The notes beneath the pieces are model-generated. The model was not told the origin of the DNA. It saw only the letters and a list, made by a program, of their open reading frames with translations, and ran no database searches. Position numbers and translations under genes: made by a program. Positions 11,848 to 53,600 of a stretch of 64,000 nucleotides of DNA are shown here, piece by piece; position 1 is the first letter of the stretch; every line of letters starts with the position of its first letter. This DNA is from Acidimicrobiales bacterium. GTDB taxonomy: Bacteria; Actinomycetota; Acidimicrobiia; Acidimicrobiales; Aldehydirespiratoraceae. The DNA is taken from the NCBI GenBank assembly GCA_965207755.1, contig OZ242297.1, forward strand, positions 2,789,816-2,853,815, written 5' to 3'.

Positions 11848-12119
11848 CCGACTCCACCGGCGCAGCACGCGCGGCAGGACGCCCGGCCTCGGGCCCCAGG
11901 ATCATCCCGGCAGGCCTGCGCCGGCTGGTGGCCGGCGCCTGGCTGGCGGCCCTGCTGGCAGCGACCGCCGCCGCCGGCACAGCATCGGCCTCGTCCGGCG
12001 CCGCCCCCTACGCGATCACTGAGATCGGCCCCGCGCCGGCGACCGGGTTCAAGATCAGCGACATCGGCGCCGTCCCGACCCCGACAGCCACTCCCCCGAC
12101 GCAGACGACGCACCGCTGA
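11844..12119 (+). CDS. small secreted protein (91 aa) translationally coupled to the kinase-like gene
   Basis: ATG 11844 overlaps the upstream stop 11845-11847 (ATGA). The signal-like N-terminus is RRLVAGAWLAALLAATAAAGTASA, and the tail is Pro/Thr-rich. Confidence 0.4.
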   Translation: MTDSTGAARAAGRPASGPRIIPAGLRRLVAGAWLAALLAATAAAGTASASSGAAPYAITEIGPAPATGFKISDIGAVPTPTATPPTQTTHR

Positions 12120-12120
12120 G

Positions 12121-12305
12121 CACAGACGACGCGGACGACGCAGACGACGCACCGGCGAACACAGACGAACGCGGACGACGCAGACGACGCACCGGCGAAC
12201 ACAGACGACCCAGACGACGCAGACGACGCACCGGCGAACACAGACGACGCGGACGACCCAGACGACGCACCGGCGAACACAGACGAACGCGGACGACGCA
12301 CCGGG
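12121..12305. repeat. tandem repeat, about 4.7 copies of 39-40 bp, between convergent genes
   Basis: Units beginning cacagacga start at 12121, 12160, 12200, 12239 and 12278. The last codons of the upstream CDS (gacgcagacgacgcaccg) already resemble the unit. Confidence 0.9.
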
Positions 12306-12319
12306 CGAGGTCGGCGGCA

Positions 12320-13039
12320 TCAACCCCCGCTGACAGTCCCCGCCCCGGGCAGGTGGCCGCTGCGGCGGGCGGCCAGCACGGCCGCCGCAGCGATGGCCGC
12401 CGTCTCGGCTCGCATGATGTGCGGGCCGAGAACCACATGGCGCGGCACCGCGGCCGTCTCCGCCTCCGTCCATCCGCCCTCGGGACCGACCAGCACGAAG
12501 TTCTCATCCGCCCTCAGTCGCCTACCGGCTGACAGCGCCAGCACAGCCCCGCCCAGGTCGAGCGCACCGAAGTCACGCACCGGCTCGACCTCCGGCAGCC
12601 ACAGACGGCGGCACTGCATCACCGCCTCGCGAGCCACCCGCCGCCACCGCTGCAGGCGCCGGGCCGACTTGACCCCGTCCCAGCGCACCACCGACCGAGC
12701 GGCCACGAACGGCACGATCCGGTCCACCCCCAACTCGGTGAGCTTCTGCACGACCGTCTCGGAGCGCCCGCCCTTCAGCACCGCGAAGCCGACAGCAAGC
12801 ACCGGCCTCGGGGCAGCCACCGCCACAACCCCGCCGACCGGCTCGACCCCGCCGGAGAAGCGGCACGGCCGCCACCGGCCGGCTCCGTCGCCGACGGTCA
12901 GAGGGTCGCCGGGGCGCAGGCGCAGGACCCGCTCGAGGTGATGGCGGTCGTCGCCGGCCAGCACCGGCGCATCCACGTCGGAGACCAGCACATGCGGGCC
13001 CGACCGGGCGTCGCCAGCGGCCGGCTCCGGGCCGCTCAC
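12320..13039 (-). CDS. rsmE: 16S rRNA (uracil1498-N3)-methyltransferase RsmE
   Basis: Diagnostic segments are HHLERVLRLRPGD, LKGGRSETVVQKLTELGV, LVGPEGGW and MRAETAAIAA. The start is uncertain: GTG 13039 is preferred, and the ORF is open up to GTG 13129. Confidence 0.85.
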   Translation of the reverse strand: MSGPEPAAGDARSGPHVLVSDVDAPVLAGDDRHHLERVLRLRPGDPLTVGDGAGRWRPCRFSGGVEPVGGVVAVAAPRPVLAVGFAVLKGGRSETVVQKLTELGVDRIVPFVAARSVVRWDGVKSARRLQRWRRVAREAVMQCRRLWLPEVEPVRDFGALDLGGAVLALSAGRRLRADENFVLVGPEGGWTEAETAAVPRHVVLGPHIMRAETAAIAAAAVLAARRSGHLPGAGTVSGG

Positions 13040-13142
13040 CCGGCCGCCGCCACCGGCGCCACCACACCCGCCCCCGAGTCGTCGGGTGCCTCTTGTGGAG
13101 TCACTCCACGAGTCCGGCCCGAGCTCCACGCAGGCGTGCGGC

Positions 13143-14258: not shown

Positions 14259-14376
14259 CTACAGCAGCTAGGTCTTCTGGGACGCGAGCCGGACACGTTC
14301 AACGTGCTCGTGGCACTCGCGGAGTTCGACCCCATGCTCGCTCAGAGCCGGCCGCGGCTCCCAGCGACCGGCCATC

Positions 14377-15369: not shown

Positions 15370-15380
15370 GGGTGAAGATG

Positions 15381-15467
15381 CTACCCGTCCAGCGCGAGGG
15401 CCGAGATGCCCGGCAGCCCCATGCGCGAGGGCCGAGATGCTACCCGTCCAGCGTGAGGGCCGAGATG
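15381..15467. repeat. duplication of the lepA 3' end in the lepA-hrcA spacer
   Basis: The sequence ctacccgtccagcg[c/t]gagggccgagatg occurs at 15381-15408 and again at 15440-15467, which is the true lepA end including the TAG stop. A partial copy gcgcgagggccgagatg lies at 15423-15439. Confidence 0.85.
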
Positions 15468-20534: not shown

Positions 20535-20580
20535 CGCCGCCCCGCCCCAACTCCGGCGGAGCCGCTCGACGGTCGAGGAT

Positions 20581-21030
20581 CGCCCACCGCCGCCCGATCC
20601 CCGACCTCGCCCCGCCCTCACGGGCCGCCCACCGTGGCCAGAGGACGGATCTGATCGCCCACCGCCGCCCGATCCCCGACCTCGCCCCGCCCTCACGGGC
20701 CGCCCACCGTGGCCAGAGGACGGATCTGATCGCCCGCCGCCGCCCGATCCCCGACCTCGCCCCGCCCTCACGGGCCGCCCACCGTGGCCAGAGGGCGGAT
20801 CTGATCGCCCGCCGCCGCCCGATCCCCGACCTCGCCCCGCCCTCACGGGCCGCCCACCGTGGCCAGAGGGCGGATCTGATCGCCCACCGCCGCCCGATCC
20901 CCGACCTCGCCCCGCCCTCACGGGCCGCCCACCGTGGCCAAGGGGCGGATCTGATCGCCCACCGCCGCCCGATCCCCGACCTCGCCCCGCCCTCACGGGC
21001 CGCCCACCGTGGCCAGAGGGCGGATCTGGT
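20581..21030. repeat. tandem repeat, 6 copies of 75 bp, spanning the comEA stop and the comEA-comEC spacer
   Basis: Units start at 20581, 20656, 20731, 20806, 20881 and 20956. The copies are nearly identical, and each contains ctcacgggccgcccaccgtggccagagg.cggatctg, which is the last 12 codons plus the stop of comEA. Confidence 0.95.
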
Positions 21031-21739
21031 CGAGCTTGGCCGGGCCGATGCCGGAGACCTCGACCAGCTCGTCGACCGTGGTGAACGGGCCTGACTGCCG
21101 GCGGTGCTCGACTATGGCGGCCGCCAGCGCAGGGCCGATGCCCGGCAACTCTTGCAGCGCGGCAGCGTCTGCGGTGTTGACGTTCAGCGGTGCGCCCGCC
21201 CGTCCACTTCCCGCTCCGGCGCCTCCCGCTCCGGCGCCGCCGCCCGCTCCTGCGCTGGCCGAGACGACCTCGGGTCCCGCCGACTCCCCGACAGCCGGCA
21301 CCCACAGGCGCGCTCCGTCGCTCAGCGGCTCTGCCAGGTTGAGCCGCATCCGGTCGGCCTCGGCGGTCAGCCCGCCCGCGGCCTCGACTGCGTCGGCGAC
21401 GCGGCTGGTGGCGGGCAGTTCGTGCAGGCCGGGCCTGACCACCGCCCCGACGACGTCCACCGCTATGCGTGCCGGGTCCGCCACCGGCGACGGACCCGGC
21501 ACGGGGATCTCCACCGAGCCGGCCATCGGCAGGATCTCGGCCGGGTCCGGGCCGGCAGGCGGGCGCAGCGCCCACCAGCCCCCGAGCGCGGCGGCAGCCA
21601 CCGCGAGCGCGCCGAGGACCACCGTCACCGGGGACACGCCCAGCCGATCGGCCAGCGCTCCCGGGGATGGCACCGCGAGCCGGCGGCCGCGGCCGCCGGC
21701 GGGTGGCGTACCCATTGCCTGTCCCCACGTCGCCTGCAA
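20993..21739 (-). CDS. comEA: competence protein ComEA (SLBB domain plus helix-hairpin-helix DNA binding)
   Basis: Diagnostic segment: LNVNTADAAALQELPGIGPALAAAIVEHRRQSGPFTTVDELVEVSGIGPAKLDQI. The start is uncertain (21739 or 21715). Confidence 0.85.
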   Translation of the reverse strand: MQATWGQAMGTPPAGGRGRRLAVPSPGALADRLGVSPVTVVLGALAVAAAALGGWWALRPPAGPDPAEILPMAGSVEIPVPGPSPVADPARIAVDVVGAVVRPGLHELPATSRVADAVEAAGGLTAEADRMRLNLAEPLSDGARLWVPAVGESAGPEVVSASAGAGGGAGAGGAGAGSGRAGAPLNVNTADAAALQELPGIGPALAAAIVEHRRQSGPFTTVDELVEVSGIGPAKLDQIRPLATVGGP

Positions 21740-30433: not shown

Positions 30434-31675
30434 GTGACTGACGAGCGGGTGCCGGGCCCGCTGGCCGGGGTTCGGGTGATCGAGTCGAGTCTGCTGGGAC
30501 CCGGACACCTCGGAACATTCCTGGCCGACCTTGGCGCGGACGTGATCAAGGTCGAGTCGCCCGCCGGCGACTACATCCGCCAGATGACCTGGCCCATCGT
30601 CGAGGGGGTGTCGCTGCTGCACCTGCACACCCACCGGGGCAAGCGCAGCATCACCCTCGACCTCAAGAACCCGGCCGGCCGGCAGCTCTACATCGACCTG
30701 GCCGCGGGTGCCGACGTCGTGGTGGAGGCCATGCGGCCCGGCACGCTGGCCCGGCTCGGCCTCGGCTACGACGTGCTCAGCGCAGCCAACCGGAGCCTCG
30801 TGTTCGCCACCCTGTCGGGCTACGGGGCCACCGGCCCCTACAAGGACATGCCCAGCCACGGAATTGCCTACGACACCTGGTCGGGGATCGTGCAGCCCGT
30901 CGTCGACGACGAGGGCTTCACCCGCATCCCGCCGGACATGCCCAATGTGGGGATCAACGTGGGGCCGATGCTGGCCGCGCTGGCCGTGCTGGCCGCGGTG
31001 ATCAAGGCCCGCGACACCGGCGAGGGCTGCCAGATCGAGGTGGCCCAGTCCGACGCGTCGGCCTACATGGACTGGTACCGCATCGAGACCGAGCGTGCCT
31101 ACCTGCGGCCCGCCGACGAGGTGACCGGCAACCCGTCCGACGGCTACGAGCGCCGCCCTGCGGGGCTTGCCGGGATGTGGGAGGGCGTGCGCTACCAGGC
31201 CTACGCCACCGCCGACGGCCACGTGCTGTTCATGGCGTCGGAGCAGGCCTTCTGGCGCAACTTCTGCGAGGGCGTGGGCCGCATGGACCTGTACGAGCGC
31301 TGGCCCGGGTCCACCTACGCCGACCACGCCCGGGGCAACACCGAACTGCAGCACGAGCTCAAGGCCATCTTCGCCACCAGGACCTGCGCCGAGTGGCTCG
31401 CGTTCAGCAACGAGGTCAACACCCCCATCGCGCCGTTCAACACGGCCGCCAACATCGGCGACGACCCCCAGTTCCAAGCCCGCATCGGCTTCCTGCCCAC
31501 CGAGTCCATGGGCTGCGAGCAGCTCCCCCTGCCCGTCTTCGTCGACGGCGACAAGCCCCCCACCCCCTCCAAAGCCCCCACAGCAGGCCAGCACACCGAC
31601 GAAGTCATGGAGCAGATCTTGAACTTCAGCGAGGCCGGGATCGCCGCCCTCCGCACCGAAGGCGCCTTCGGCTAA
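30434..31675 (+). CDS. family III CoA-transferase (CaiB/BaiF type)
   Basis: The N-terminal region reads LAGVRVIESSLLGPGHLGTFLADLGADVIKVESPAGD and YDTWSG lies further on. The length and overall sequence fit the family. Confidence 0.9.
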   Translation: MTDERVPGPLAGVRVIESSLLGPGHLGTFLADLGADVIKVESPAGDYIRQMTWPIVEGVSLLHLHTHRGKRSITLDLKNPAGRQLYIDLAAGADVVVEAMRPGTLARLGLGYDVLSAANRSLVFATLSGYGATGPYKDMPSHGIAYDTWSGIVQPVVDDEGFTRIPPDMPNVGINVGPMLAALAVLAAVIKARDTGEGCQIEVAQSDASAYMDWYRIETERAYLRPADEVTGNPSDGYERRPAGLAGMWEGVRYQAYATADGHVLFMASEQAFWRNFCEGVGRMDLYERWPGSTYADHARGNTELQHELKAIFATRTCAEWLAFSNEVNTPIAPFNTAANIGDDPQFQARIGFLPTESMGCEQLPLPVFVDGDKPPTPSKAPTAGQHTDEVMEQILNFSEAGIAALRTEGAFG

Positions 31676-31678: not shown

Positions 31679-31726
31679 GAATTGGCAGCAGAAAGCACGC
31701 ATACCGTGCAAAACGCTGCCAATTCC
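31679..31726. repeat. 48-nt two-tier hairpin repeat (GAATTGGCAGC family) 3 nt after the stop codon
   Basis: The fold is GAATTGGCAGC agaaa GCACG catac CGTGC aaaac GCTGCCAATTC. Confidence 0.8.
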
Positions 31727-36300: not shown

Positions 36301-37529
36301 CAGCCGCCACCCCCCACACCGTCAAGAATCCATCCACCGCCACAATCACCGTCAACGACAACGAACCCGCTGTCACCATCACCGCCGACACCCCAGCCGT
36401 CACCGAAGGCGACAGCGCCGCGTTCACCGTCCGCGCCGACCCCGCACCCAGCGCCGACCTCACCGTGCGAGTCAACATCACCCAGACCGGCCAATACGCC
36501 GCCGCCTCCGCCCTCGGCGCCCGCAGCATCACCATCACCAAGAACACCACCACCGCCAAACTCGCCGTCGCCACCGTCGACGACACCACCGTCGAACCCG
36601 CCGGAACCGTCACCGCCACCATCAGGACCGCAGCCGCCACCCCCCACACCGTCAAGAATCCATCCACCGCCACAATCACCGTCAACGACAACGACCAGGT
36701 CGTCACCGTCACCGCCGACGCCACGGCGGTCACCGAAGGAGCCGACGCCGCCTTCACTGTCCGCGCCGACCCCGCACCCGGCAGCGACCTCACCGTCAAC
36801 ATCACCGTCACCCAGACCGGCGAATACGTCGCCGCCGCCAACCTCGGAACCCGCAACATCACCATCGCCAAAGGTGCCGCCACCGCCAGACTAGCCGTCC
36901 CGACCGTCGACGACCGGCGGGACGAACACCCCGGAACCGTCACCGTCACCGTCAACACCGCAGCCGGCTACACCCGAGGCACCCCCGACACCGCCACAAC
37001 CACAGTCAACGACAACGACCCACCGCTGTCCGGTATCATACCGGGCTACAGAGGATGCAACAGCGGCTATCTCCTGTACGAAGGCACCAGCACCAACTTC
37101 TGCGTGTTCAGCATGCCGCGGTACGGGCTGACCGCCGACGTCGACTACACGATCTACTTCGCCCAACTTGACTGGAGCACTCTTCCAATCGGGTGGACGG
37201 TGGACAGCGAGCGTCTCATTCTGCGGAATCTCAACGAGGCCGTGGCGGGCACGAGCTGCGGGTCGGGCGTCGACATCGTCATGTTGGACTGGGTGGACGG
37301 CACCTTCGGCAAGGATGCGGAATTCGATGCCGCCGTCGAGGGAGCCGGCGCCCTGCGGGGAACGGTCAAGGAGGGCAAGAGCATCCATCTGGCATGGGAC
37401 ATCAGAGTATGCAACGACTATGTGAAAGAAGGATGGGAACTGACCGCAATAAGGATCACATTCGAATCCGGAGGTCAAACCCGGACCTACAAAATCCCCA
37501 CGCTGTTGTTGGTGAGAGACAACGACTGA
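33375..37529 (+). CDS. giant surface protein: TadE-like pseudopilin N-terminus, 9 Calx-beta-like repeats and a novel Cys-containing C-terminal domain
   Basis: The N-terminus REFG|AASLELVLLVPALTALVLFVVWA fits a prepilin-type G|xxxxE site and the TadE family. Nine repeats of about 110 aa follow (VTEGD.A.FTV...LTV.V.VTQTG.Y....GARSVTI.KG.TTA.LAV.TVDD...EP.G.VTA). The last 170 aa or so are unrelated and have lower G+C. Confidence 0.8.
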   Translation: MPSSWSVGVGRWRFERLRAVPEGSGRGREFGAASLELVLLVPALTALVLFVVWAGAGGRAGLVADLAAEEAAAAAGMACDPADAAGDAQCLDSVAREVLGARPGLGELCVGGAAPSRPGTGLASRQGDAVSVGVLCRAAGAAAPLGGLAPAVDFYGEGTHVVVLPDRSVTVAAVSSGVTEGSDAEFAVTVAPPPAGALELVVTLSEDGGFVDGGYLGGHPLAVPPFPVTEAPKIDFGDGTRLDADGAVVGADDAADSVVYRFAVPTVDDGAVEPDGWVQAAVAVAAGDGYRPGAPARVAVLDDDVPTVTVAAADHDPATPGAQTAVTEGDVGDPAVYAVFTVTADQSPAEDTTIRLSVTETGDQIAAAAEGPKTVTIAKGATAATYRVPVAADDRVEASSTVTAAITADAAYAVGAPSSAPVTVLDDDVPTVTVAAADHDPATPGVQTAVTEGDATEFTVSVPSQHAPLTDLTVNLTVTQTGQYVPAAGLGARSVTIDKGATTARFAVATVDDSTPEPPGAVTATVTAAPDYAVGVPSSASVDVLDDDVPEVTVTAGADVTEADPGDAAVFAVFTVTADHAPVIDTAVSLSVTETGDQIAAAAEGEHTATIAKGATTAVLRVAVAADDRVEASSTVTSVIEPASGYSVGVPASASLQVLDDDLPEVTVAAGPDVYEGSPAKFTVAADQPPIADTAVTLTIAETGSELRSGQTGAHTVTIRKGTTTATHPVLTRADDNRVEAGSRITATVAAVTVASGYGVGVPGSAELSVKDNDRPAVSVSPGPAITEGQTAEFTVSVPIQHAPLADLTVQVDVTQTGRYAASGQTGARSATIAKGATTAKLAVATIDDTTPEPAGAITAAITSVTADADYTVTAPSTATVAVNDNEPTVTITADTPAVTEGDSAAFTVRADPAPSADLTVRVNITQTGQYAAASALGARSVTITKNTTTAKLAVATVDDTTVEPAGTVTATIRTAAATPHTVKNPSTATITVNDNEPAVTITADTPAVTEGDSAAFTVRADPAPSADLTVRVNITQTGQYAAASALGARSITITKNTTTAKLAVATVDDTTVEPAGTVTATIRTAAATPHTVKNPSTATITVNDNDQVVTVTADATAVTEGADAAFTVRADPAPGSDLTVNITVTQTGEYVAAANLGTRNITIAKGAATARLAVPTVDDRRDEHPGTVTVTVNTAAGYTRGTPDTATTTVNDNDPPLSGIIPGYRGCNSGYLLYEGTSTNFCVFSMPRYGLTADVDYTIYFAQLDWSTLPIGWTVDSERLILRNLNEAVAGTSCGSGVDIVMLDWVDGTFGKDAEFDAAVEGAGALRGTVKEGKSIHLAWDIRVCNDYVKEGWELTAIRITFESGGQTRTYKIPTLLLVRDND
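36021..36680 (+). repeat. near-identical 330-bp tandem duplication inside the giant gene (two Calx-beta-like units)
   Basis: The anchor gtcaacgaca recurs at 36021, 36351 and 36681. By eye, units 36021-36350 and 36351-36680 differ at only a few positions. Confidence 0.9.
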
Positions 37530-41302: not shown

Positions 41303-42784
41303 ATGATCCGTATGCACACCGGAGGCTACAACCGCTCGCCGTTACCATCCCCTCCGATGGCGCCCGAACCTGCACCACCGCCCGACCCGCTCGACCTCGA
41401 GGCGTTCCGCCGCAACGCCCACGCCCTGGTCGACTGGGTGGCCGACTACCTCGCCGGACTCGGCGCCAGGCCGGTCCGCGAGCCGGTGGCGCCCGGTGAG
41501 GTGCGAGCCAAGCTGCCCGACCGAGCACCCGAGGGGCCCGAGCCCTTCGACGCGGTGCTGGCCGACCTCGACCGGGTGGTGGTGCCGGGGCTGGCCCACT
41601 GGCAGCATCCCGGCTGGTTCGCCTTCTTCCCGGCCCAGACCTCGCCGCCGGCGGTGCTCGGCGAGTTGGCCGCGGCCGGCATCGGCGTGCAGGGGATGAT
41701 GTGGGCGACCTCGCCGGCGTCCACCGAGCTCGAGTCCCACATGCTCGACTGGCTGGTCGACCTGCTCGACGTGCCCCAGTCGTGGAAGACGACCGGACCC
41801 GGCGGCGGGGTGCTGCAGGCCGGCGCCTCGACCGCCACCCACACCGCCATGATGGTGGCCCGCGAGCTCTGCCGCGAGCGCACCGGGGCACCGGCCGAGC
41901 AGATGGTGGCGTACACGTCCAGCCAGGCCCACTCGTCGCTGGAGAAGGGCGCCATGCTGACGGGGTTCGGCCACCTCCGCCTGCTGGACGTCGACTCGGA
42001 CTTCGCGGCCCGGCCCGAGGCGCTGACCGGAGCGATCGAGGCCGACCGCCGCGACGGCCTGATACCGGCCTTCCTGGGCTCGAACATGGGCACCACCGGG
42101 ACCGCGGGGGTCGATCCGCTGCGCGCCCTCGGCAGGATCGCCCAGGCCGAGCAGATGTGGCACCACGTCGACGCGGCCTACGGAGGGTCGGCCATGATCT
42201 GCGAGGAGTTCCGCCACCACCACGACGGGCTGGAACTGGTCGACAGCTACACCTTCAACCCCCACAAGTGGCTGGCCACCAACCTGGAGTGCTCGGTGAT
42301 GTGGGTCGCCGACCGGCGGCCCCTGATCGACACCCTCAGCGTTACACCCCCCTACCTGCGCAACCCGGCCTCGGAGTCGGGCCTGGTGATCGACTACCGG
42401 GACTGGCACGGCCCGCTGGGGCGGCCGTTCCGGGCGCTCAAGCTGTGGTTCGTGCTGCGCGGCTTCGGCGCCGAGGGCCTGCGGCGCATGATCCGCAACC
42501 ATGTCGGTTGGGCACGCGAGCTGGCCGAGCGCGTCGACGACCACCCCCGGCTGGAGCGCATCGCGCCGGTACACTTCGCGCTGGTGTCGTTCGTACACCG
42601 CGACGGCGACGCGGCCACCGGCGCCCTGGCCGAAGCCATCAACGCCGACGGCCGGTTCTACGTCACGACCTCGGAGATCGACGGTCGGCGGTTCGTGCGG
42701 ATCTCGGTCGGCTCCACCTGGACCACCGCCGACGATGTCGAGGCCCTATGGGACCTCATCGAGGCCCGCTCCTCCGTTCTGTGA
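41303..42784 (+). CDS. PLP-dependent group II decarboxylase (aromatic-L-amino-acid/DDC-like)
   Basis: Diagnostic segments are HWQHPGWFAFFPA and the PLP-lysine motif SYTFNPHKWL. The start is possibly at ATG 41357 (MAPEPAPP). Confidence 0.85.
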   Translation: MIRMHTGGYNRSPLPSPPMAPEPAPPPDPLDLEAFRRNAHALVDWVADYLAGLGARPVREPVAPGEVRAKLPDRAPEGPEPFDAVLADLDRVVVPGLAHWQHPGWFAFFPAQTSPPAVLGELAAAGIGVQGMMWATSPASTELESHMLDWLVDLLDVPQSWKTTGPGGGVLQAGASTATHTAMMVARELCRERTGAPAEQMVAYTSSQAHSSLEKGAMLTGFGHLRLLDVDSDFAARPEALTGAIEADRRDGLIPAFLGSNMGTTGTAGVDPLRALGRIAQAEQMWHHVDAAYGGSAMICEEFRHHHDGLELVDSYTFNPHKWLATNLECSVMWVADRRPLIDTLSVTPPYLRNPASESGLVIDYRDWHGPLGRPFRALKLWFVLRGFGAEGLRRMIRNHVGWARELAERVDDHPRLERIAPVHFALVSFVHRDGDAATGALAEAINADGRFYVTTSEIDGRRFVRISVGSTWTTADDVEALWDLIEARSSVL

Positions 42785-42896
42785 GCAGATATGCCGACTG
42801 AGGCGGCTCTGTTGCGCACAGAACGCTGGGATCGAGTTCTGTGAGCAGATATGCCGACTGAGGCGGCTCTGTTGCGCACAGAACGCTGGGGGGGCT
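42777..42896. repeat. tandem repeat, 2 copies of 60 bp, starting in the last codons of the decarboxylase gene
   Basis: The sequence ttctgtgagcagatatgccgactgaggcggctctgttgcgcacagaacgctggg occurs at 42777 and 42837. Each copy contains the stem GTTCTGTG...CACAGAAC. Confidence 0.9.
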
Positions 42897-44685: not shown

Positions 44686-44960
44686 CGGTCCGCGGGACCA
44701 GCCGACACCGCCAACCGGGCCGCAGGACGCCAACCCGGCCACGACACGCACCGTCACCCCGCGGGACCAGCCGGCACCGCCAACCGGGCCGCAGGACGCC
44801 AACCCGGCCACGAGACGCACCGTCACCCCGCGGGACCAGCCGGCACCGCCAACCGGGCCACACACCGCCATCCCGGCCACGACGACACGCACCGTCACCC
44901 CGCGGGGCCGGCCGGCACCGCCAGACGGGCCGCAGGACGCCGGTACGCTGACCCCGTCCG
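44686..44960. repeat. tandem repeat, about 4 copies of 69-72 bp, in the aldolase-ACAD spacer
   Basis: The anchor cgcgggaccagcc (or ggggccggcc) recurs at 44691, 44760, 44829 and 44901. Confidence 0.9.
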
Positions 44961-44998
44961 CCCGGCCCGCCCGCAGCCGCCGGCACCGAGGAGCCGCC

Positions 44999-46222: not shown

Positions 46223-46224
46223 GC

Positions 46225-46431
46225 GTGCAGGCCATGACGGCGACAGCCCCTGACGGGCGTCGCGGCGCGGTGAGGGGCAGCCCTCGCGCTTCCGGCGCCC
46301 GCAACGGAGTTCGCCGCGGCGCGCCGGTTCGCGCCGGCGACCGCGTCCGCACGGACGGAGTGGCCGCTACTCGCAACGGCGCTCGCCGCGGCTCGCCTGT
46401 TCGCGCCCGTCCCGGGGGCGTGGGAGCGTGA
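46225..46431 (+). repeat. intercistronic segment with 2 copies of a 72-bp repeat and a bridging small ORF
   Basis: The anchor gcaacgg recurs at 46301 and 46373. The ORF runs from GTG 46225 or ATG 46234 to TGA 46429-46431, which overlaps the GTG 46428 start of the next gene. Confidence 0.7.
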
Positions 46432-47618
46432 CGTCCTCCGAGGCGCAGGCCGCCCCGGCGGGCGCGCTCGACGGGGTCAGGGTGCTGGACCTGTCGTCGG
46501 TCGGGCCCGCGGCCCGGGCCACCAGGCTTCTGGCCGACTACGGCGCGGAGGTGGTGAAGGTCGGTCCGGTGCCGCGACGGGCCGGGGCCGCCACCGTTCC
46601 CCCCGCCTACGCCTACAGCGGCCACCGGGGCATGAGGCGGGTGCTGCTCGACCTCAAGTGCGACAGCGGGCGGGACGCCTTCCTCGACCTGGCCCGGGGC
46701 GCCGACGTGGTGGTGGAGAGCTTCCGTCCCGGCGTGGTCGACCGCCTCGGCATCGGCCACGGCGCGGTGCGGGCCGTCAATGAGGGTGTCGTCTACTGCT
46801 CCACCAGCGGCTACGGCCAGAGCGGCCCGAGGCGGAACTGGGCCGGCCACGACCTCAACTACCTGGCCGTCTCCGGCTACCTGCACTGCAGCGGACGCGA
46901 CGCCGGCGGCGTCCCCGCGCTGCCCGGCGCCACGGTGGCCGACATCGCCGCCGGCGGGATGCACGCCGCGCTGGCGGTCACGGCCGCCCTGCTGCGCCGG
47001 GAGCGCACCGGCCACGGCGAGCACCTCGACGTTTCGGTGGCCGACGGGGCGCTGGGGATGATGGCGCTGTACGCCGACGAGCACCTGGCCACCGGCGCCG
47101 AGCCCGGTCCGGGCCACTACATCCTCACCGGCCGCTATGCCTGCTACGGCGTTTACGCCTGCGCCGACGGCGAGTATCTGTCGGTGGCCGCCATCGAGCC
47201 CGCATTCTGGGCCAACCTGTGCCGTGCGCTGGGCTTCGAGCGCTACATCGACGCCCAGACCGATGACGATGCCCAGGACGAGATCCGCGCCGCTGTCTCG
47301 GCCGCACTGGAGACGGCCGACCGCGACGAGTGGGTGCGTCGACTCGGCCCCGCCGACTGCTGTGTCGCCCCGGTCAACAGAATCTCCGAAGCCGTCCGCG
47401 ACGAGCAGTACCTGGCCCGGGGTGCGGTGGTCGATGCCGAGCACCCCCAGGCAGGCGCCGTCGAGCAGATCAGCTCGCTGTGGGCCGGAACGGCAACGCC
47501 GGAGAGCCCGCACCGGCTGCCCGACCCCGGGGCCACCGACACCGCCGCGCTCCTGGCCGAGGCCGGCTACGACGAGACCCGCCTGGCCGGACTGACCGCG
47601 GAAGGAGCCATCGCGTGA
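46428..47618 (+). CDS. family III CoA-transferase (CaiB/BaiF, alpha-methylacyl-CoA-racemase-like)
   Basis: The N-terminal region is LDGVRVLDLSSVGPAARATRLLADYGAEVVKV. GHDLNYLA lies further on. Confidence 0.9.
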   Translation: MTSSEAQAAPAGALDGVRVLDLSSVGPAARATRLLADYGAEVVKVGPVPRRAGAATVPPAYAYSGHRGMRRVLLDLKCDSGRDAFLDLARGADVVVESFRPGVVDRLGIGHGAVRAVNEGVVYCSTSGYGQSGPRRNWAGHDLNYLAVSGYLHCSGRDAGGVPALPGATVADIAAGGMHAALAVTAALLRRERTGHGEHLDVSVADGALGMMALYADEHLATGAEPGPGHYILTGRYACYGVYACADGEYLSVAAIEPAFWANLCRALGFERYIDAQTDDDAQDEIRAAVSAALETADRDEWVRRLGPADCCVAPVNRISEAVRDEQYLARGAVVDAEHPQAGAVEQISSLWAGTATPESPHRLPDPGATDTAALLAEAGYDETRLAGLTAEGAIA

Positions 47619-47790
47619 TGTCCGCCGAACCGGCAAGCCCAACAGGCGGACGGCGGCGCCGAGTTGGATGCCGCCAATCTGATCGCGTGATGTCCGCCGA
47701 ACCGGCAAGCCCAACGGGCGGACGGCGGCGCCGAGTTGGATGCCGTCAATCTGATCGCGTGATGTCCGCCGAACCGGCAAGCCCAACAGA
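47615..47790 (+). repeat. tandem repeat, about 2.4 copies of 72 bp, each beginning GTGATG and so re-creating the upstream stop codon
   Basis: Units start at 47615, 47687 and 47759. The first GTGATG contains the CoA-transferase TGA (47616-47618). Confidence 0.9.
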
Positions 47791-47847
47791 CCCAAGACGG
47801 CCCCCACTCCCCCTGTTCACGGCGCCCTCGACCGCCACCCGATTCAC

Positions 47848-47896
47848 GAACTGGCAGCAGAATGCGCCCCATACGGGGCACCACGCTGCCAATTCC
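47848..47896. repeat. 49-nt two-tier hairpin repeat (variant of the GAATTGGCAGC family)
   Basis: The outer stem is GAACTGGCAGC...GCTGCCAATTC. The inner stem GCCCC-atac-GGGGC replaces GCACG/CGTGC. Confidence 0.75.
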
Positions 47897-47922
47897 CGGA
47901 GTGACGGGGAGGCGGCGACCGC

Positions 47923-48984
47923 ATGACCGGCGAACTGCCTGCCGGCATCGGCGAGCTGATCGGCCGGCCCGTGTACCCGCAGACGGCCGACTTCCCTGCC
48001 GAAATGGGCTACGGCTGGAACACGCTGGCCGCCACCGAGAACGGCAACCCGCTGTACTGGGAACCGGCCGTGGCCGGGATGGTCGCCGGGGACCGCATCC
48101 TGCCCCTCAGCACGCTGTCGCTGTGGATGCGGCCCCACCGCTGGGCGCCCGGCGCCACCACCGAGCAGGTCGCGCTCGGGGTCCACTTCGACCTCAAGGA
48201 GGGTCTGGGGCTCCCCGAGGCCATCATGAGCGACAACACGGTCGTGTTCCACGAGCCCGTGCGCCCCGGCGACGTGATCAGCCACCACCAGGTTCTGCGG
48301 TCGGTGAGCGGGCCCAAGACGACCCGGCTCGGCTCCGGACGGTTCTGGGTGATCGACGTCGAGTACCACAACCAGCACGCGACGCTGGTCGGTGTGGAGT
48401 CCTACACCGGTTTCGGCTACCGCCGGAGCGACCCGGCCCCAGCCGGGCAGCCTCGGGCGCCCCGTCCGACGGAGCCCCCGTCGCCGGACGAGGCTTCCGG
48501 CCCGCGGGCCAAGCCGGACCCCGCCCACGACCAGGTCCGGGTGGGCGACGCCCTGCCCGTGCTCACCCACGACGTGACCGCCACCACCGTCGTGCTCGGC
48601 GCCCTGGCCAGCCGCGACTGGCGGCCGATGCACCACGACTACCGCTTCGCCACCGAGCGAAACGGGGCCCGCGACATCTTCCTGAACACGCCCAACCAGC
48701 TCGCCTGGATCGAGCGGGCCGTCACCGACTGGACCGGGCCCCGCGGCCGGCTGGGGCGGGTCTCGTTCCGCATGCAGGATCCGGTCTTCCCCGGCGACAC
48801 CATGACCATCTCGTCGGTGGTCACGGCGGTGCCCGTCGACGACTCCGGCTGCGGCTGGGCCGAACTCGACCTGGTGCTGCGGGCCGGCGACCGGGTCTGC
48901 ACGACCGGGAGGGCCAAGGTGGCCCTGCCGATGTCGGCGGCCGACAATCCGTGGCAGCGCCGCGGCGAGGACTGGAACCCGTGA
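47923..48984 (+). CDS. double hot-dog-fold (MaoC-like) enoyl-CoA hydratase/dehydratase
   Basis: The N-terminal hot-dog ends FWVIDVEYHN. A linker follows, then the MaoC-type C-terminal half (RPMHHDYRFATERNGARDIFLNTPNQ...FPGDT). Confidence 0.8.
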   Translation: MTGELPAGIGELIGRPVYPQTADFPAEMGYGWNTLAATENGNPLYWEPAVAGMVAGDRILPLSTLSLWMRPHRWAPGATTEQVALGVHFDLKEGLGLPEAIMSDNTVVFHEPVRPGDVISHHQVLRSVSGPKTTRLGSGRFWVIDVEYHNQHATLVGVESYTGFGYRRSDPAPAGQPRAPRPTEPPSPDEASGPRAKPDPAHDQVRVGDALPVLTHDVTATTVVLGALASRDWRPMHHDYRFATERNGARDIFLNTPNQLAWIERAVTDWTGPRGRLGRVSFRMQDPVFPGDTMTISSVVTAVPVDDSGCGWAELDLVLRAGDRVCTTGRAKVALPMSAADNPWQRRGEDWNP

Positions 48985-49021
48985 TGCTCCAGTCCTCCGA
49001 CCAGGCTTGCGGGAGGCGTTG

Positions 49022-50167
49022 ATGCTCGACCTCGACTTCACCCAGGAACAGGAGATGCTGCGCGGCATGGTGCGCGGCCTGTGCAGCGAGCTCTCGCCGC
49101 TGGAGCGTGTGCGGGAGCTCGAGGACGACCCCGACGGCGTCCACCGGGAGCTCTGGCAGCGTTTCGGGGAGCTGGGCCTGTGCGGCCTGATGGTCCCCGA
49201 GAGCGCCGGCGGCTCCGGCATGAGCCTCCTCGACGGGGTCGTGCTCTACGAGGAGTTGGGGCGCTCGCTGGCCCCGCTGCCCCACTTCGTCAGCTGCGTG
49301 CTGTCCGCCGCGGCGATCACCGAGGCCGGGTCGCCGGCCCAGCAGGCCGAGCTGCTGGGCGGCATCGCGTCGGGCGAGACCATCGCGACCGTCGGGTGGC
49401 TGGAGCCGGGCGGGGGCTACAAGCCCCGCGGCGTGCAGCTGGCCGCCCGCGCCGACGGAGACGGCTTCGTGCTGGACGGCGCCAAGGAGCATGTCCCGTT
49501 CGCGGCGGCCGCCGACCTCGTCGTCGTGCTGGCCCGCAGCGGCGACGACGACACCGATATCGACCTGTTCGTGGTGGAGGCGGGCGCCCCGGGCCTGAGC
49601 CTCGACCAGCGGATGTCGATCTCGTCGGACACCCAGTACCGGGCCACCCTCGACGGCGTACACGTCGGTGCCGGCGCCCGCCTGGGCACCCCCGACGCTG
49701 CTGCGGGCGCCGGCTGGGAGGCCTGGCAGCGCGCCATGCACGCCGGCGCGATCCTGGCCGCGGCCCAGGCCGTCGGCGGCGCCTCGGCCGCCCTCGAGAT
49801 GACCGTCGAGTACGCCAAGGAGAGGCGCCAGTTCGACAAGGCCCTGGCCGAGTTCCAGGCCGTCTCGCACTACCTGGCCGACGCCCGCACCGCCCTCGAC
49901 GGCGCCGAACTGCTGGTGTACGAGGCGGCCTGGGCCCACAGCACGGGCCGCTCCACCGAGCGGCTGGCCCCCATGGCCAAGATGTTCGCCTGCCGCACCT
50001 ACCGGGAGATCACCGCCATGTGCCAGCAGGTGTTCGGCGGCATCGGCTTCACTGTGGAGTACGACATCCAGCTCTACTTCCGCCGAGCCAAGCAGCTCCA
50101 GCTCTCCTGGTGGGACCAGGCGACCTGCGAGGACCGCATCGCCGACGCCGTCCTGGGCGCCCGCTAA
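49022..50167 (+). CDS. acyl-CoA dehydrogenase
   Basis: The protein begins MLDLDFTQEQEMLRGMV and contains EYAKERRQFDKALAEFQAV. ATG 49022 follows GGGAGG. The ORF-track TTG at 49007 is probably too early. Confidence 0.9.
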   Translation: MLDLDFTQEQEMLRGMVRGLCSELSPLERVRELEDDPDGVHRELWQRFGELGLCGLMVPESAGGSGMSLLDGVVLYEELGRSLAPLPHFVSCVLSAAAITEAGSPAQQAELLGGIASGETIATVGWLEPGGGYKPRGVQLAARADGDGFVLDGAKEHVPFAAAADLVVVLARSGDDDTDIDLFVVEAGAPGLSLDQRMSISSDTQYRATLDGVHVGAGARLGTPDAAAGAGWEAWQRAMHAGAILAAAQAVGGASAALEMTVEYAKERRQFDKALAEFQAVSHYLADARTALDGAELLVYEAAWAHSTGRSTERLAPMAKMFACRTYREITAMCQQVFGGIGFTVEYDIQLYFRRAKQLQLSWWDQATCEDRIADAVLGAR

Positions 50168-50505
50168 GCGGCCCCGGTTGCGCCCTCGAGTGCGGCTATC
50201 CGCTCGCCGTGGTCCGCCATCGAGGTGAGCAGACGACCATGCTCCTCCAGAGTGGCCTCGATCCTGGCAAGACGACGGCCATGCTCCTCCAGAGTGGCCT
50301 CGATCCTGGTCAATCGACGGCCATGCTCCTCTTGGACGGTCTCAATCTTGGTCAATCGCTCAAGCACCTTGACCAAGATCGCCTCGTTGCGATCGAGGCG
50401 CGCGCCGAGGGATCGAATGTCCGACTTGATTACGGACAGGGAAAAGCCGAGCAGCCCCAAGATGCCCGCACCCAATACTCCGATGATCGCTTCTGCCACG
50501 GTCAT
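50164..50505 (-). CDS. small single-TM coiled-coil protein with 3 copies of a 14-aa (42-bp) repeat
   Basis: The TM segment is MTVAEAIIGVLGAGILGLLGF. The repeats are TKIETVQEEHGRRL, TRIEATLEEHGRRL and ARIEATLEEHGRLL (nt 50237-50362). GGAGGA precedes ATG 50505. G+C is lower than in the flanking sequence. Confidence 0.5.
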   Translation of the reverse strand: MTVAEAIIGVLGAGILGLLGFSLSVIKSDIRSLGARLDRNEAILVKVLERLTKIETVQEEHGRRLTRIEATLEEHGRRLARIEATLEEHGRLLTSMADHGERIAALEGATGAA

Positions 50506-50572
50506 GTCCTCCCAAGTATAGCATGTCCAACCGTCGAGGCCATTCGGCAATAGTTATATAGATCAATATAGC
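50506..50572. promoter_or_regulatory. AT-rich divergent intergenic region with a direct repeat
   Basis: This is the only strongly AT-rich stretch in the core region. TATAGCATG occurs at 50517-50525 and 50567-50575, exactly 50 bp apart, and the second copy contains the ATG of the downstream gene. Confidence 0.3.
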
Positions 50573-51568
50573 ATGATAGTTACCAAGTGTCTCACCCCCC
50601 GGCGGGTCGATCTGCTGCTGGGCGGGGCGGTGACGGTGGCCGCGGTGACCGGCCTGGTGTCCTGGGGCGTCGGCAGCGGCTGGGCCCGCTGGGTGACGGT
50701 CGTCCATGCTCTGGCCGGCCTGAGCCTTCTGGCGCTGGCCCCGGCCAAGCTCCGCGGCTCGGTGCGCACCGGGCTGAAGCGTCGCCGGGCCACCCGGTGG
50801 CTGTCGATGCTGTTGGGCTTGCTGGTGGCAGCCACCGTCGTCCTTGGCATCCTGCACGCCACCGGCCTGTGGCACGGGGTGGGCTACTGGTCGGCGCTGT
50901 GGACCCATTTCCTGCTTGCCGCGCTGCTGGCCCCGCTGGTGGTCTGGCACATCGCAAGCCGGCCCGGCCGTCCCCGCGTGGCCGACCTCGACCGCAGGAC
51001 CCTTGTCGGCGGCAGCGCCGCGGTCGCGGCCGCCGGCATCGCCTACGGGGTCCAGCAACTCGTGGTCGGCGACAACCGGCGCTTCACCGGCTCCCACGAG
51101 ATCGCCTCGTTCAACCCGGCGGAGATGCCGACCACCATGTGGCTCAACGACCGCTCCCCGAGGGTGCCGGCCTCGGGGTGGGAGTTGGTGGTCGCCGGCC
51201 GGACGGTCCCGCTGGAGGATCTGCACGCCCGAGCCGCTCCCGTCGAGGCCGATCTCGACTGCACCGGCGGATGGTGGAGCCGCCAGTCGTGGGACGCGGT
51301 GCCGCTGGCCGAGCTGATGCCGACGGTGGACGCGGCCACACTCGAAGTCACATCGCTGACCGGCTACAGCCGGCTGTTCCCGGCCCGCGACGCCGCCAAC
51401 CTGTACCTGGCCGTCGGCTACAACGGCGAGCCCCTGCGCCGGGGCCACGGCGCGCCCGTCCGTCTGGTGGCGCCGGGGCGCCGGGGCTTCTGGTGGGTGA
51501 AGTGGGTGAGCCGCATCGACCCCGTCGACCGCCCGTGGTGGCTCCAACTGCCGTTCCCGCTGGAGTGA
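50573..51568 (+). CDS. membrane-anchored molybdopterin-binding oxidoreductase (sulfite-oxidase/YedY-like domain)
   Basis: Four N-terminal TM helices are followed by DCTGGWWS, GYNGEPLRRGHGAPVRLVAPGRRGFWWVKWV. Confidence 0.75.
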   Translation: MIVTKCLTPRRVDLLLGGAVTVAAVTGLVSWGVGSGWARWVTVVHALAGLSLLALAPAKLRGSVRTGLKRRRATRWLSMLLGLLVAATVVLGILHATGLWHGVGYWSALWTHFLLAALLAPLVVWHIASRPGRPRVADLDRRTLVGGSAAVAAAGIAYGVQQLVVGDNRRFTGSHEIASFNPAEMPTTMWLNDRSPRVPASGWELVVAGRTVPLEDLHARAAPVEADLDCTGGWWSRQSWDAVPLAELMPTVDAATLEVTSLTGYSRLFPARDAANLYLAVGYNGEPLRRGHGAPVRLVAPGRRGFWWVKWVSRIDPVDRPWWLQLPFPLE

Positions 51569-51689
51569 CCCGCACCAAGCCGGCGGCCGCGTTCGAGTTC
51601 TTCGAGAAGTCGGGCGTGCTGTTCGTGCTTCCGCGACCACGACATCGCCCCGGAGGGGTCCGGCGGCGCGATACTGGGCGCCACCACCG

Positions 51690-53474
51690 ATGCGACTCGC
51701 TTGTCTATTAGTGGCGGCCGCGCTGGCGGCTACGGCGTGCTCGGATGAGCCGCCCGCGGGCGACGGCCTAACCGACGAGAGCGTTCAGGCCGAGCCGGCC
51801 GCCACCGACGACGGCGCAAGCGCCGGGGCGCCCGACCAGTCGACGCCTCCGCCGGTCCCGGGGACGTTCACCGCGGTGGCGGCCGGGTTCTGGCACACCT
51901 GCGCGATCCGCTCCGACGGCCGGATCGAATGCTGGGGCGTCAACCGGGACGGGCTGCTGGACGCGCCCGTGGGTCGGTTCAAGGCGATCTCTGCCGGGCC
52001 CGGCCACAACTGCGCCATCCGCACCGACGGCGGCATCGAGTGCTGGGGCGAGGAGTTCCCAGGAATGGCCGACGCGCCCGTCGGCGAATTCGTCGCGGTG
52101 TCCGCGGGCGCCGGATACACGTGCGCGCTGCGTGACGACGGAGACGTCGACTGCTGGGGCGGTTCCGACACTCAACTCTTGACCCCGCCCGGTGGGCACT
52201 TCACCGCGGTGGCCGCGGGGCACCGTCACGCGTGCGTGCTGCGCGAGGGTGGAACGGTGCTCTGCTGGGGCGCCAACGAAGAAGGCCAGGCCGAAGGGCG
52301 CACCCAACGCTTCAGTGACATCGCCGCCGGGGCCGACCACACCTGCGGGGTGAAACTCGACGGCACCGTCGAATGCTGGGGATCCGACTACCTGGCCAAG
52401 TCCGACGCGCCCGGCGGGACCTTCACGACGCTCGCGGCCGGGGTAGACCACACGTGCGCGGTGAGCACCGGCGGCACAGCCGAGTGCTGGGGATCGGACG
52501 CCTTCGGTGCGACTCCGGCACCCGACGGCCAATTCCAGTCGGTCGCGGCCGCGGCCGACCACAGTTGCGGGCTGCGCACAGACGGCACCATCCAGTGCTG
52601 GGGCAGGCGCTTCATCGCGGGCGCCGAACCTCCCGGCGAGCAGCTTGCATCCCTGGTTGCCGGCGGCAACCACACCTGCGGGCTGCGCCCCGACGGCACC
52701 GTCGAATGCTGGGGCACAGACCTCGTGGGTCGGATGGAACCGCCCGGTGGACGCTTCGATTCGATGGCCACCGGGAACTACTTCGCCTGCGGGCTGCGCC
52801 CCGACGGCACCGTCGAATGCTGGGGATTCGACCGCTTCGGCGTGCTCGACGTCCCCGACGGAGCGTTCCATGCCGTGACGGCCGGCGTCGGCCACGCCTG
52901 CGCCCTGCGAGGCAACGGCACCGTCGAATGCTGGGGTTCCAACTCGCACGGACAGGCCGACACCCCCGCAGACACCTTCGCCGCCATCTCGGCAGGGAGC
53001 TCGCACACCTGCGGCATCCTCCTCGACACCGGTTGGGCCGAGTGCTGGGGAAACCCGTACGCGGGGAGGCTGGATGCCCCAGCGGGGGCCTTCATCGCCG
53101 TCGCAGCCGGCGGCCAGGAGCAGCCTCCTCCAGAGCGCCAACTCCGCGGCCCTCAGGAGTCCGTCGCAGCCGGTGACAGCCACACCTGCGGGCTGCGCCC
53201 CGACGGCGCCGCCGAGTGCTGGGGATCCAACTCGCACGGGCAGAGCGAGGCCCCCGCAGGCGCCTTCACGGCTGTCTCGACCGGCGTGCATTCCTGCGGC
53301 TTGCGCCCCGACGGCGCCGTCGAGTGCTGGGGAACCGACGAAGCGCCCTCCGCAGGGGAGTTCGCCGCCGTGGAGGTCGGCCAGGGCTACACCTGCGGGC
53401 TGCGTCCCGACGGCGCCGCCGAGTGCTGGGGAACGCTGCGGGCGCCGCCCGAGGGAGTGACCTACACCGGCTGA
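51690..53474 (+). CDS. RCC1-repeat (beta-propeller) lipoprotein
   Basis: The lipobox is LAATAC. About 11 repeats of the form HTCAIRSDGRIECWG follow. Confidence 0.85.
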   Translation: MRLACLLVAAALAATACSDEPPAGDGLTDESVQAEPAATDDGASAGAPDQSTPPPVPGTFTAVAAGFWHTCAIRSDGRIECWGVNRDGLLDAPVGRFKAISAGPGHNCAIRTDGGIECWGEEFPGMADAPVGEFVAVSAGAGYTCALRDDGDVDCWGGSDTQLLTPPGGHFTAVAAGHRHACVLREGGTVLCWGANEEGQAEGRTQRFSDIAAGADHTCGVKLDGTVECWGSDYLAKSDAPGGTFTTLAAGVDHTCAVSTGGTAECWGSDAFGATPAPDGQFQSVAAAADHSCGLRTDGTIQCWGRRFIAGAEPPGEQLASLVAGGNHTCGLRPDGTVECWGTDLVGRMEPPGGRFDSMATGNYFACGLRPDGTVECWGFDRFGVLDVPDGAFHAVTAGVGHACALRGNGTVECWGSNSHGQADTPADTFAAISAGSSHTCGILLDTGWAECWGNPYAGRLDAPAGAFIAVAAGGQEQPPPERQLRGPQESVAAGDSHTCGLRPDGAAECWGSNSHGQSEAPAGAFTAVSTGVHSCGLRPDGAVECWGTDEAPSAGEFAAVEVGQGYTCGLRPDGAAECWGTLRAPPEGVTYTG

Positions 53475-53480
53475 CCTTCC

Positions 53481-53600
53481 GAATTGGCAGCACAATGCAC
53501 GCCACCCGTGCATCACGCTGCCAATTCCCTGGTGGCGCCAACCGGCGCTCTCGAATTGGCAGCACAATGCACGCCATCCGTGCATCACGCTGCCAATTCC
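53481..53600. repeat. two copies of the 48-nt GAATTGGCAGC hairpin, 72 bp apart
   Basis: The copies lie at 53481-53528 and 53553-53600. Each folds as GAATTGGCAGC acaa TGCACG cca[c/t]c CGTGCA tcac GCTGCCAATTC. Confidence 0.85.

Follow-up and report, generated by a model that had tools for sequence, protein, structure and literature searches.

Eight tandem-repeat arrays, A1 to A8 (Table 1), lie in the non-coding spacers of a 64,000-nucleotide window (~71% G+C) from an Acidimicrobiales bacterium (positions 2,789,816 to 2,853,815 of contig OZ242297.1, assembly GCA_965207755.1), and we propose that they are probably independent, locally made minisatellites of the variable number of tandem repeats (VNTR) type, which were generated by slippage and filtered by selection. 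Their units of 28-75 bp are present in 1.5-6.1 copies, as is usual for minisatellites. An earlier note on this DNA had described the arrays and held that no feature class explains them; this part of it was wrong, as they are tandem repeats of the VNTR or minisatellite type.

Tandem Repeats Finder recovers six of the eight (A1, A2, A3, A4, A5 and A7) and a direct repeat search confirmed the remaining two, A6 and A8, so that all the arrays listed earlier are real and lie where they had been placed. At a period of at least 25 and a score of at least 100 the window holds 10 arrays, as against none in 30 dinucleotide-preserving shuffles. Three of these 10 are coding (330-bp, RTX nonapeptide and 42-bp repeats), and the 42-bp array (50232-50358) had been overlooked in the earlier list; an RCC1-repeat gene adds coding repeats of 111 bp. 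The periods of the coding arrays (27, 42, 111 and 330) are all divisible by three. By the same criterion 82 other lepA neighbourhoods (~1.5 Mb) contain 14 arrays, i.e. 0.9 versus 15.6 per 100 kb in the window, a density about 15 times lower in a comparison set that includes many short-read assemblies, which under-represent repeats.

The arrays share a distinctive geometry. Five of them (A1, A2, A3, A4 and A7) begin inside the last codons of the upstream coding sequence, as had been claimed, with overlaps of 23, 28, 40, 9 and 9 nt respectively, and two others (A5 and A8) begin 4-5 nt past the stop codon; A6 starts 77 nt past the stop of an acyl-CoA dehydrogenase (ACAD) gene and ends 20 nt ahead of the GTG of a CoA-transferase gene. 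Six arrays are found between co-directional genes, in gene orientation, and two between convergent genes, so that the proposed anchoring at gene ends stands with the correction that these two abut two stops: A1 lies between the stops of a 91-aa signal-peptide open reading frame (ORF; 12117-12119) and of rsmE (12320), and A4 between those of a pyridoxal-phosphate-dependent (PLP) decarboxylase (42784) and an enoyl-CoA hydratase (42896). The stop codon itself is repeated in A2, A3, A4 and A7, and to that extent the reported duplication of stop regions is real; in the 39-bp array A1 the TGA is present in the first unit only. The units of A2 repeat the last eight codons and the TAG of lepA, and the array ends 6 nt ahead of the hrcA ATG (15369). 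In A3 the unit comprises the last 11 codons of comEA with its TGA and then 39 nt of spacer, and the array ends 43 nt ahead of the comEC ATG (20534); every A7 unit repeats ...ATCGCGTGATG, which comprises the stop and overlapping start codons. The A4 unit is a 49-nt hairpin with the decarboxylase TGA in its 5' arm, whereas that of A5, which ends 57 nt ahead of the ACAD ATG, is a dimer of a ~35-bp unit; A8 lies between the stop of the RCC1-repeat protein gene, 5 nt upstream, and the GTG of a gene for a YceI protein, 42 nt downstream. The arrays occupy 53-91% of the spacers in which they lie, and there are always 6-133 nt between an array and the start codon that follows. As the earlier note had stated, the units are mutually unrelated, with no two of them similar in rotation-insensitive local alignments judged against shuffles. 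A1 has no T on its + strand and A5 only 2%, with no start or stop codons; hence neither has a stop codon on either strand. The sense strands of both also lack ATG, GTG and TTG, leaving them silent in six reading frames.

The origin of the arrays was traced through related genomes. LepA of the window shares 93% identity with the LepA of two Acidimicrobiales/Acidimicrobiia metagenome-assembled genomes and 80% with that of a Candidatus Microthrix genome, and an identical LepA is encoded on contigs of GCA_028819505.1 and the ENA assembly ERZ23495468. These two, possibly from one sample, were handled as one sister strain ("strain B"), with a protein identity to the window of at least 99%; both are short-read assemblies with gaps at several arrays, so that some strain-B copy numbers are lower bounds. 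Exact-protein look-ups with the acyl-CoA dehydrogenase and MaoC protein returned no match; strain B differs by a few residues, hence we turned to a homologue search with the CoA-transferase, in which strain B came up at 99% identity along with many relatives at 80-87%. The loci taken in from this search were L083-L087 and L168-L171, and a metagenome scan contributed just three close relatives (L088, L089 and L094). L001 and L086, loci of one genome (complete chromosome OZ220709.1; LepA identity of L001 to the window 93%) with compact spacers, served as the array-free reference. Flanking gene ends were set by Pfam together with gene calls on strain-B contigs.

At the lepA/hrcA junction L001 has the sequence ...TTCATCTCGGCGCTCACGCTGGACGGGTAG-CATCTGCGGC-ATG (lepA-TAG-CATCTGCGGC-ATG) with a spacer of 10 nt, in which the pentamer CATCT occurs right after the lepA stop and again 28 nt upstream inside lepA. 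The segment between the two pentamers is the one that is present in three copies in the window as A2. Likewise, the 75-bp unit of A3 spans from a GATCC in comEA to a GATCC in the spacer, which measures 38 nt in L001, and at the junction between the HpcH-aldolase and ACAD genes an ancestral spacer tail, GGTACGCTG, ends both A5 and the array of L085. Judged from sequence comparison, the footprints at A2, A3 and A5 are those of microhomology-mediated tandem duplication, and the units of A2 and A3 (against the unduplicated L001) and of A5 are locally derived. The microhomology-bounded tails of lepA and comEA in the unduplicated L001 support the earlier suggestion of a common generating process by local duplication across stop codons, and the shared stop-anchored geometry recurs in L002, L088, L170 and L171. 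G-quadruplex (G4) motifs occur in every 75-bp unit of A3 on the gene-sense strand (GGGCGGGGCGAGGTCGGGGATCGGG), and of the 22 starts of minus-strand G4 motifs in the whole window 18 lie in A3; as a general trigger of duplication such structures were rejected, since among the arrays the motifs are found in A3 only.

Consistent with an active turnover of units, strain B differs from the window at four or five arrays (Table 1), the outcome of the comparison with relatives that had been suggested earlier; A6, for example, has 2.7 copies in strain B. This also led us to reject a repeat-spacer-repeat structure (36 + 36 nt) resembling clustered regularly interspaced short palindromic repeats (CRISPR) for A6, as strain B repeats the whole 72-bp unit; nor do the other arrays have the CRISPR pattern of conserved repeats set apart by unique spacers, since whole units recur in them. 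In related genomes the same junctions, or ones next to them, hold arrays with other units: L171, with a CoA-transferase identity of 87%, has five arrays within 21 kb, and others were found in L002, L170, L088 and L085; no arrays were detected at the examined loci of L086/L001, L168, L169, L089 and L094. The high density of arrays characterises a sub-lineage, made up of this genome, L171 and, in part, L085. The units at the HpcH/ACAD junction in the window, L171 (34 bp) and L085 (35 bp) are weakly similar (z 3.3-3.5), and the array at this junction is thus probably old and evolving in concert. When the 17 arrays of the window and its relatives are pooled, nine overlap a stop codon and none a start codon, which also holds for the 13 that lie between co-directional genes (P about 0.002).

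Table 1. Positions and properties of the arrays, palindromes, spacer-spanning ORFs and assembly gaps; the last column gives the spacer length in the window versus that in the array-free relative
Feature	Sequence	Position (nt)	Strand	Structure and place	Window versus strain B	Spacer (nt)
A1	Window	12097-12300	+	39/40-bp unit x5.2, 92% matches (Tandem Repeats Finder)	5 vs 3 units	
A2	Window	15376-15467	-	Three 28-31-bp units; 59-bp offset copies 97% identical	3 vs 4 (L082) units	lepA/hrcA, 70 vs 10
A3	Window	20578-21032	-	75-bp unit x6.1, 97%		comEA/comEC, 458 vs 38
A4	Window	42776-42890	+	60-bp unit x1.9, 100% identical	2 vs at least 3 copies	
A5	Window	44690-44941	+	69/72-bp unit x3.6, 89%; 4 nt past HpcH-aldolase stop	Unit lengths 69, 69, 72 vs 72, 72, 72	HpcH/ACAD, 313 vs 71
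A6	Window	46300-46407	+	72-bp period, ~1.5 copies; 36-nt repeat (46300/46372), 89% identity	Spacer 205 vs 277 nt; difference exactly 72	ACAD/CoA-transferase, 205 vs 7
A7	Window	47610-47789	+	72-bp unit x2.5, 97%; start 9 nt inside CoA-transferase	Equal copy number	CoA-transferase/MaoC, 304 vs 22
A8	Window	53480-53602	+	Two palindromic-element copies and linker, 72-bp spacing; 51-nt repeat (53480/53552), 98%		RCC1/YceI, 170 vs 47
Palindrome copies in A8	Window	53481-53527, 53553-53599	+	Fold z -6.2		
Palindrome, single copy	Window	47848-47895 (match 47852)	+	CoA-transferase/MaoC spacer, downstream of A7; fold z -3.8		
Palindrome, single copy	Window	31679-31725 (match 31683)	+	Fold z -6.8		
Palindrome	L085	11212-11361				
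Palindrome	L088	11172-11366				
Palindrome	L171	11160-11410, 20177-20413				
Spacer-spanning ORF	Window	47617-47926	+	ATG overlaps CoA-transferase TGA (TGATG); TGA overlaps MaoC ATG (ATGA)		
Spacer-spanning ORF through A6	Window	46225-46431	+	TGA overlaps CoA-transferase GTG (GTGA)		
Array	L002			34 bp, independent, at comEA gene end, stop codon included		
Array	L171			94 bp x2.0, enoyl-CoA hydratase stop included		
Array	L171			34 bp, 7 nt past stop codon		
Array	L171			47 bp, 3 nt past stop codon		
Array	L171			33 bp, start 31 nt inside MaoC		
Array	L171			73 bp, start on RCC1 stop codon		
Array	L170			105 bp x3.1, 16 nt past MaoC stop		
Array	L088			71 bp x2.7, 1 nt past CoA-transferase stop		
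Array	L085			35 bp x7.9, HpcH/ACAD junction		
N gaps	L081	6336-6435, ~11800-11900				
N gap	L083	6170-6270				
Contig or scaffold ends	L082, L084, L002	Starts				

Based on these observations we propose the following sequence of events. The first step, shown for A2 and A3, is replication slippage or template switching between two direct repeats of ~5 nt, of which one lies among the final codons of a gene and the other shortly after its stop, and by which the stop-containing segment between them is duplicated. In a second step, shown by the comparison of strains, slipped-strand mispairing or unequal recombination adds or removes whole units, with the consequence that copy number differs between near-identical strains while the units stay alike. 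Finally, selection would set where arrays survive: the copy of a gene tail behind the original stop would never be translated, intragenic duplications would survive only in frame, and duplications of ribosome-binding sites or start codons would be removed. As the ancestral spacers measure only 7-71 nt, a surviving unit of 30-100 bp must abut or overlap the stop and end short of the next start; much of the stop-codon anchoring would hence follow from short ancestral spacers in which duplicated tails are tolerated but duplicated start regions are not. A8 and A4 would have arisen by the same duplication process acting on pre-existing hairpin elements.

Several observations weigh against this proposal. 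The compact L086, in which the spacers at the junctions of A6 and A7 measure 7 and 22 nt, has nothing that corresponds to the non-coding parts of these two units. Among the eight periods of the window seven are multiples of three (P=0.003), exactly 72 bp is the period of four arrays in consecutive spacers, and periods of 69-75 bp account for 7 of the 17 pooled arrays; the clustering at this length noticed earlier is nominally significant (P=0.009) but not robust, with P rising to 0.13 after merging of probably homologous arrays. Furthermore, ORFs spanning the spacer are present at 17 of 28 junctions, as against 11.5 expected under a repeat-aware null (P=0.017), an excess that is suggestive only, coming as it does from a post hoc test on genomes that share ancestry. 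Under a purely neutral model none of these findings would be predicted. The proposal also does not account for the array-free state of the sister genomes L086/L001, L168 and L169. Finally, it is built on ~64 kb of the source genome and ~250 kb of close relatives, and its strain-B copy numbers on short-read assemblies that are gapped at several arrays.

Some of these points are what would be expected if the arrays were units resembling mycobacterial interspersed repetitive units (MIRUs), kept in or inserted into operon spacers, each with a small ORF running from the upstream stop to the downstream start that preserves translational coupling, and with periods divisible by three selected to keep this ORF open. 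We consider this unlikely, though several observations speak for it. Six arrays of the eight have co-directional genes on either side and are in gene orientation, five of these six have periods divisible by three, and ORFs that overlap the downstream start by 4 nt run through A7 and A6, in keeping with MIRU biology as summarised in PMC12548453. The first of these ORFs (47617-47926) stays open through both A7 and a palindrome downstream of it. An equivalent is found at the CoA-transferase/MaoC junction in all nine genomes examined, across spacers of 22-304 nt with differing contents, and in L171 the gene caller predicts it as a 99-aa gene. The second, through A6, starts with a GTG 3 nt past the dehydrogenase stop. 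The excess of spanning ORFs noted above also speaks for coupling, but the test was designed after the data had been seen and ignores shared ancestry, open frames are common at high G+C, and the stops that overlap the downstream starts are ancestral, being found in the compact relative too. A spanning ORF is nearly present at A8 and absent at A5 and A2, and none is found in the HpcH/ACAD and lepA/hrcA spacers of any genome examined. The units are unrelated and derived from local gene tails, which speaks against a mobile family, and a unit family shared in the manner of MIRUs was rejected for want of any similar pair in the window. The periods of the arrays in relatives (34, 35, 71, 105, 94, 34, 47, 33 and 73) are mostly not divisible by three (2 of 9; 9 of 17 with the window included, P=0.075). 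The earlier observation on periods therefore holds for the window and not for its relatives, and neither a general law of divisible-by-three periods nor selection for frame-neutral spacers as a general rule can be upheld.

In a variant of our proposal the sub-lineage would possess an active, genome-specific process that makes tandem duplications of preferred length (~35, 72 and 105 bp) at stop codons, with the resulting spacers tolerated through a selected, ribosome-passable ORF. Such a process might be tied to events at gene ends or to a lineage-specific defect in replication or repair. We regard this as a rather doubtful extension, which, if true, would mean that a MIRU-like solution was reached by local duplication instead of by a mobile element.

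A different kind of explanation is raised by A8, which consists of two copies of the imperfect palindrome TGGCAGC-N25-GCTGCCA (GAATTGGCAGC-N25-GCTGCCAATTC; in its longer form CGAAYTGGCAGC-N25-GCTGCCAATTCC). The arrays might be clusters of hairpin-forming extragenic elements, comparable to repetitive extragenic palindromic (REP) sequences and bacterial interspersed mosaic elements (BIMEs), that spread or are kept for mRNA stabilisation or termination. The palindrome itself has four matches at three loci in the window where 0.02 are expected, folds far better than shuffled sequences (z -3.8 to -6.8), and is always gene-oriented, following stop codons or lying between operon genes. The copy at 31679-31725 lies 4 nt past the stop of a paralogous CoA-transferase gene (30434-31675). 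At the CoA-transferase/MaoC junction one to four copies are present in at least six relatives (L085, L088, L089, L094, L170 and L171), and the element is kept there across relatives of 80-87% protein identity. In L168 both arms have changed together (GAAATTGGTG...CACCAATTTC). The hairpin of A4, of a different type (z -2.3), likewise occurs in two tandem copies in L085; its copies are identical within genomes but differ between them, which implies concerted evolution or repeated re-duplication. As an explanation of all eight arrays, though, this is improbable. The folding of A1, A2, A3, A5 and A6 does not exceed that of shuffles, and these arrays stem from coding tails; the idea that slippage is triggered by a hairpin present in each unit was rejected, with only A8, A4 and, marginally, A7 (z -1.8) folding beyond shuffles. 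Even for the palindrome, the arms are invariant around a variable centre, without compensatory changes in the outer stem in the aligned set; it has no GTAG head; and no Rfam family matches it, relaxed searches giving only sub-threshold matches to generic hairpins (microRNA precursors). In an Rfam search of the window the gathering score was reached by two tRNAs only. Between 41 and 56 kb we found no intrinsic terminators (hairpin and U tract), as against 2.7 expected in shuffles. Two of the three palindrome loci in the window follow CoA-transferase family III genes.

It is very improbable that the repeats are translated, i.e. C-terminal tails or N-terminal extensions of proteins mis-annotated as spacers. 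The mostly divisible-by-three periods would fit, as would the frames of comEC, ACAD and hrcA, which are open upstream through A3, A5 and A2, the GTG in each A3 unit in frame with comEC, and the Thr/Gln/Arg-rich tail that A1 units would encode. Against this, each unit of A3, A7 and A4 contains the upstream stop codon in frame, A5 has no start codon in any frame, the frame is broken by 40-nt units in A1, and the segments are wholly lacking in relatives. A3 as an N-terminal extension of ComEC was rejected in particular, since the peptide from the overlapping GTG to the comEC ATG is not conserved among the window, L001 and L002; the strain-B frame is unusable there owing to an N gap.

That the arrays are an assembly or polishing artefact of a long-read genome, as the perfectly identical copies in some of them and the known tendency of tandem repeats to cause assembly error might suggest, is hardly credible, since the independent short-read assemblies GCA_028819505.1 and ERZ23495468 hold the same units at the same places and short-read contigs break or show N gaps right at the arrays, as they would at true repeats. 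In strain B this is the case at A2, A3, A4 and A6, with two contigs ending at A6, and contigs or scaffolds of both strain B and L002 end or carry N gaps exactly at tandem arrays (Table 1). As arrays fragment short-read contigs in this manner, surveys of metagenome-assembled genomes will under-count them and leave these genomes broken at operon junctions. A lepA/hrcA spacer of 255 nt in L081 is a scaffolding artefact (an N gap and a duplicated flank) and was not used as evidence.

Other spacers of the window have also changed in length or content. Those of dnaJ/rsmE (13040-13142) and hrcA/dnaJ (14259-14376) measure 103 and 118 nt and contain no detectable repeat, and their counterparts in L001 and L002 are shorter (~2-5 and 47 nt, respectively); spacer growth is thus not confined to recognisable arrays, and these two may be decayed arrays. 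Between the HpcH aldolase and ACAD genes, L169 (7456-8709) and L171 (7235-8488) have a 417-aa CoA-transferase gene that is missing from the window (44686-44998), L086 and L088. In L085 a fragment of the CoA-transferase C-terminus (8230-8300) stands directly ahead of the 35-bp array. The gene and the fragment together indicate that a CoA-transferase once lay at this junction.

Coding repeats are found in several further genes of the window. A small membrane-anchored coiled-coil ORF (50164-50505, minus strand), adjoined by an AT-rich promoter-like stretch (50505-50600), contains the 42-bp (14-aa) coding repeat at 50232-50358; its orthologues in L085, L088, L168 and L171 have different repeats of 21, 33 or 42 bp, from which it follows that the repeat region evolves fast. 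Two large repeat-bearing proteins of the secreted type are encoded at 33375-37529 and 56891-59449: a 1384-aa surface-type protein with 330-bp (110-aa) repeats and weak matches to LapA, Calx-beta and Ig domains, and an RTX calcium-binding protein of 852 aa that has Big_9 and cadherin-like domains. The first 6061 nt of the window differ from the remainder in G+C content (60-62% versus 70-75% elsewhere) and end at a tRNA-Pro(GGG) gene (5986-6061, minus strand). They encode part of a TmtA-like (Tiamat defence) protein, namely its C-terminal 600 residues (221-2104; E 3e-162 versus PADLOC), the window edge probably truncating it, together with a ResIII/DEAD helicase (3177-5201, minus strand) and proteins of no recognised type. 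The region has the look of a defence island that was integrated at a tRNA.

The ancestral single copy, the microhomologies and the later changes in copy number are all visible in public genomes, which makes this a clean natural example of the birth of bacterial minisatellites and of the places in which selection allows them to persist. Operon spacers have grown 4- to 30-fold in one lineage while those of its sisters stayed compact, which may alter the coupling and the relative expression of neighbouring genes. Strains of this uncultured marine group could also be told apart by means of the arrays, and the conserved palindrome between operon genes is a candidate for an element of mRNA stability or processing. 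That tandem repeats are generally enriched in the intergenic space of prokaryotes has been published (PMC12418385), and arrays with the first unit in a gene end have been described in Borg elements (PMC9879509); our search of the literature found nothing of this kind reported for Acidimicrobiia.

Comparison with known systems sets these arrays apart from each of them in some respect. MIRUs too are tandem units of 40-100 bp between co-directional operon genes, in gene orientation, with an ORF through the repeats that overlaps the flanking stop and start codons, as seen here at two junctions. They form, however, one dispersed and supposedly mobile family, whereas each locus of the window has its own unit from a local gene tail, and coupling ORFs are absent at several junctions. 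The REP and BIME elements of Proteobacteria are likewise imperfect palindromes after stops or between operon genes, in one orientation and in tandem clusters of variable size, but the likeness is limited to A8, with A4 as a second hairpin type, and the GTAG head is lacking. The tandem repeats of Borgs (PMC9879509) are numerous, unrelated and independent, turn over fast, and are genome-specific and absent from related genomes, all as observed here; most of their intergenic units have lengths that are not multiples of three, a feature shared by the relatives of this genome, and their arrays terminate contigs. Borg units are perfect, A-rich and mostly shorter, with at least three copies required, and reside on extrachromosomal elements; those described here, on a bacterial chromosome, have identities of 74-100%, lengths of 28-105 bp, a G+C-rich composition with an A content of 9-31%, and in several arrays two copies. 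The arrays work like the VNTR loci of Mycobacterium tuberculosis (the ETR, QUB and Mtub loci of multiple-locus VNTR analysis (MLVA) typing), which are likewise made of head-to-tail units of tens of bp, are mostly intergenic, have locus-specific units and vary in copy number between close strains, with slippage or recombination as the assumed cause. The arrays of this uncultured marine Acidimicrobiales host differ from these loci in that many of them include the upstream stop codon, and in their far higher density, with ~1 non-coding array per 8 kb versus ~1 per 100 kb in the comparison loci.

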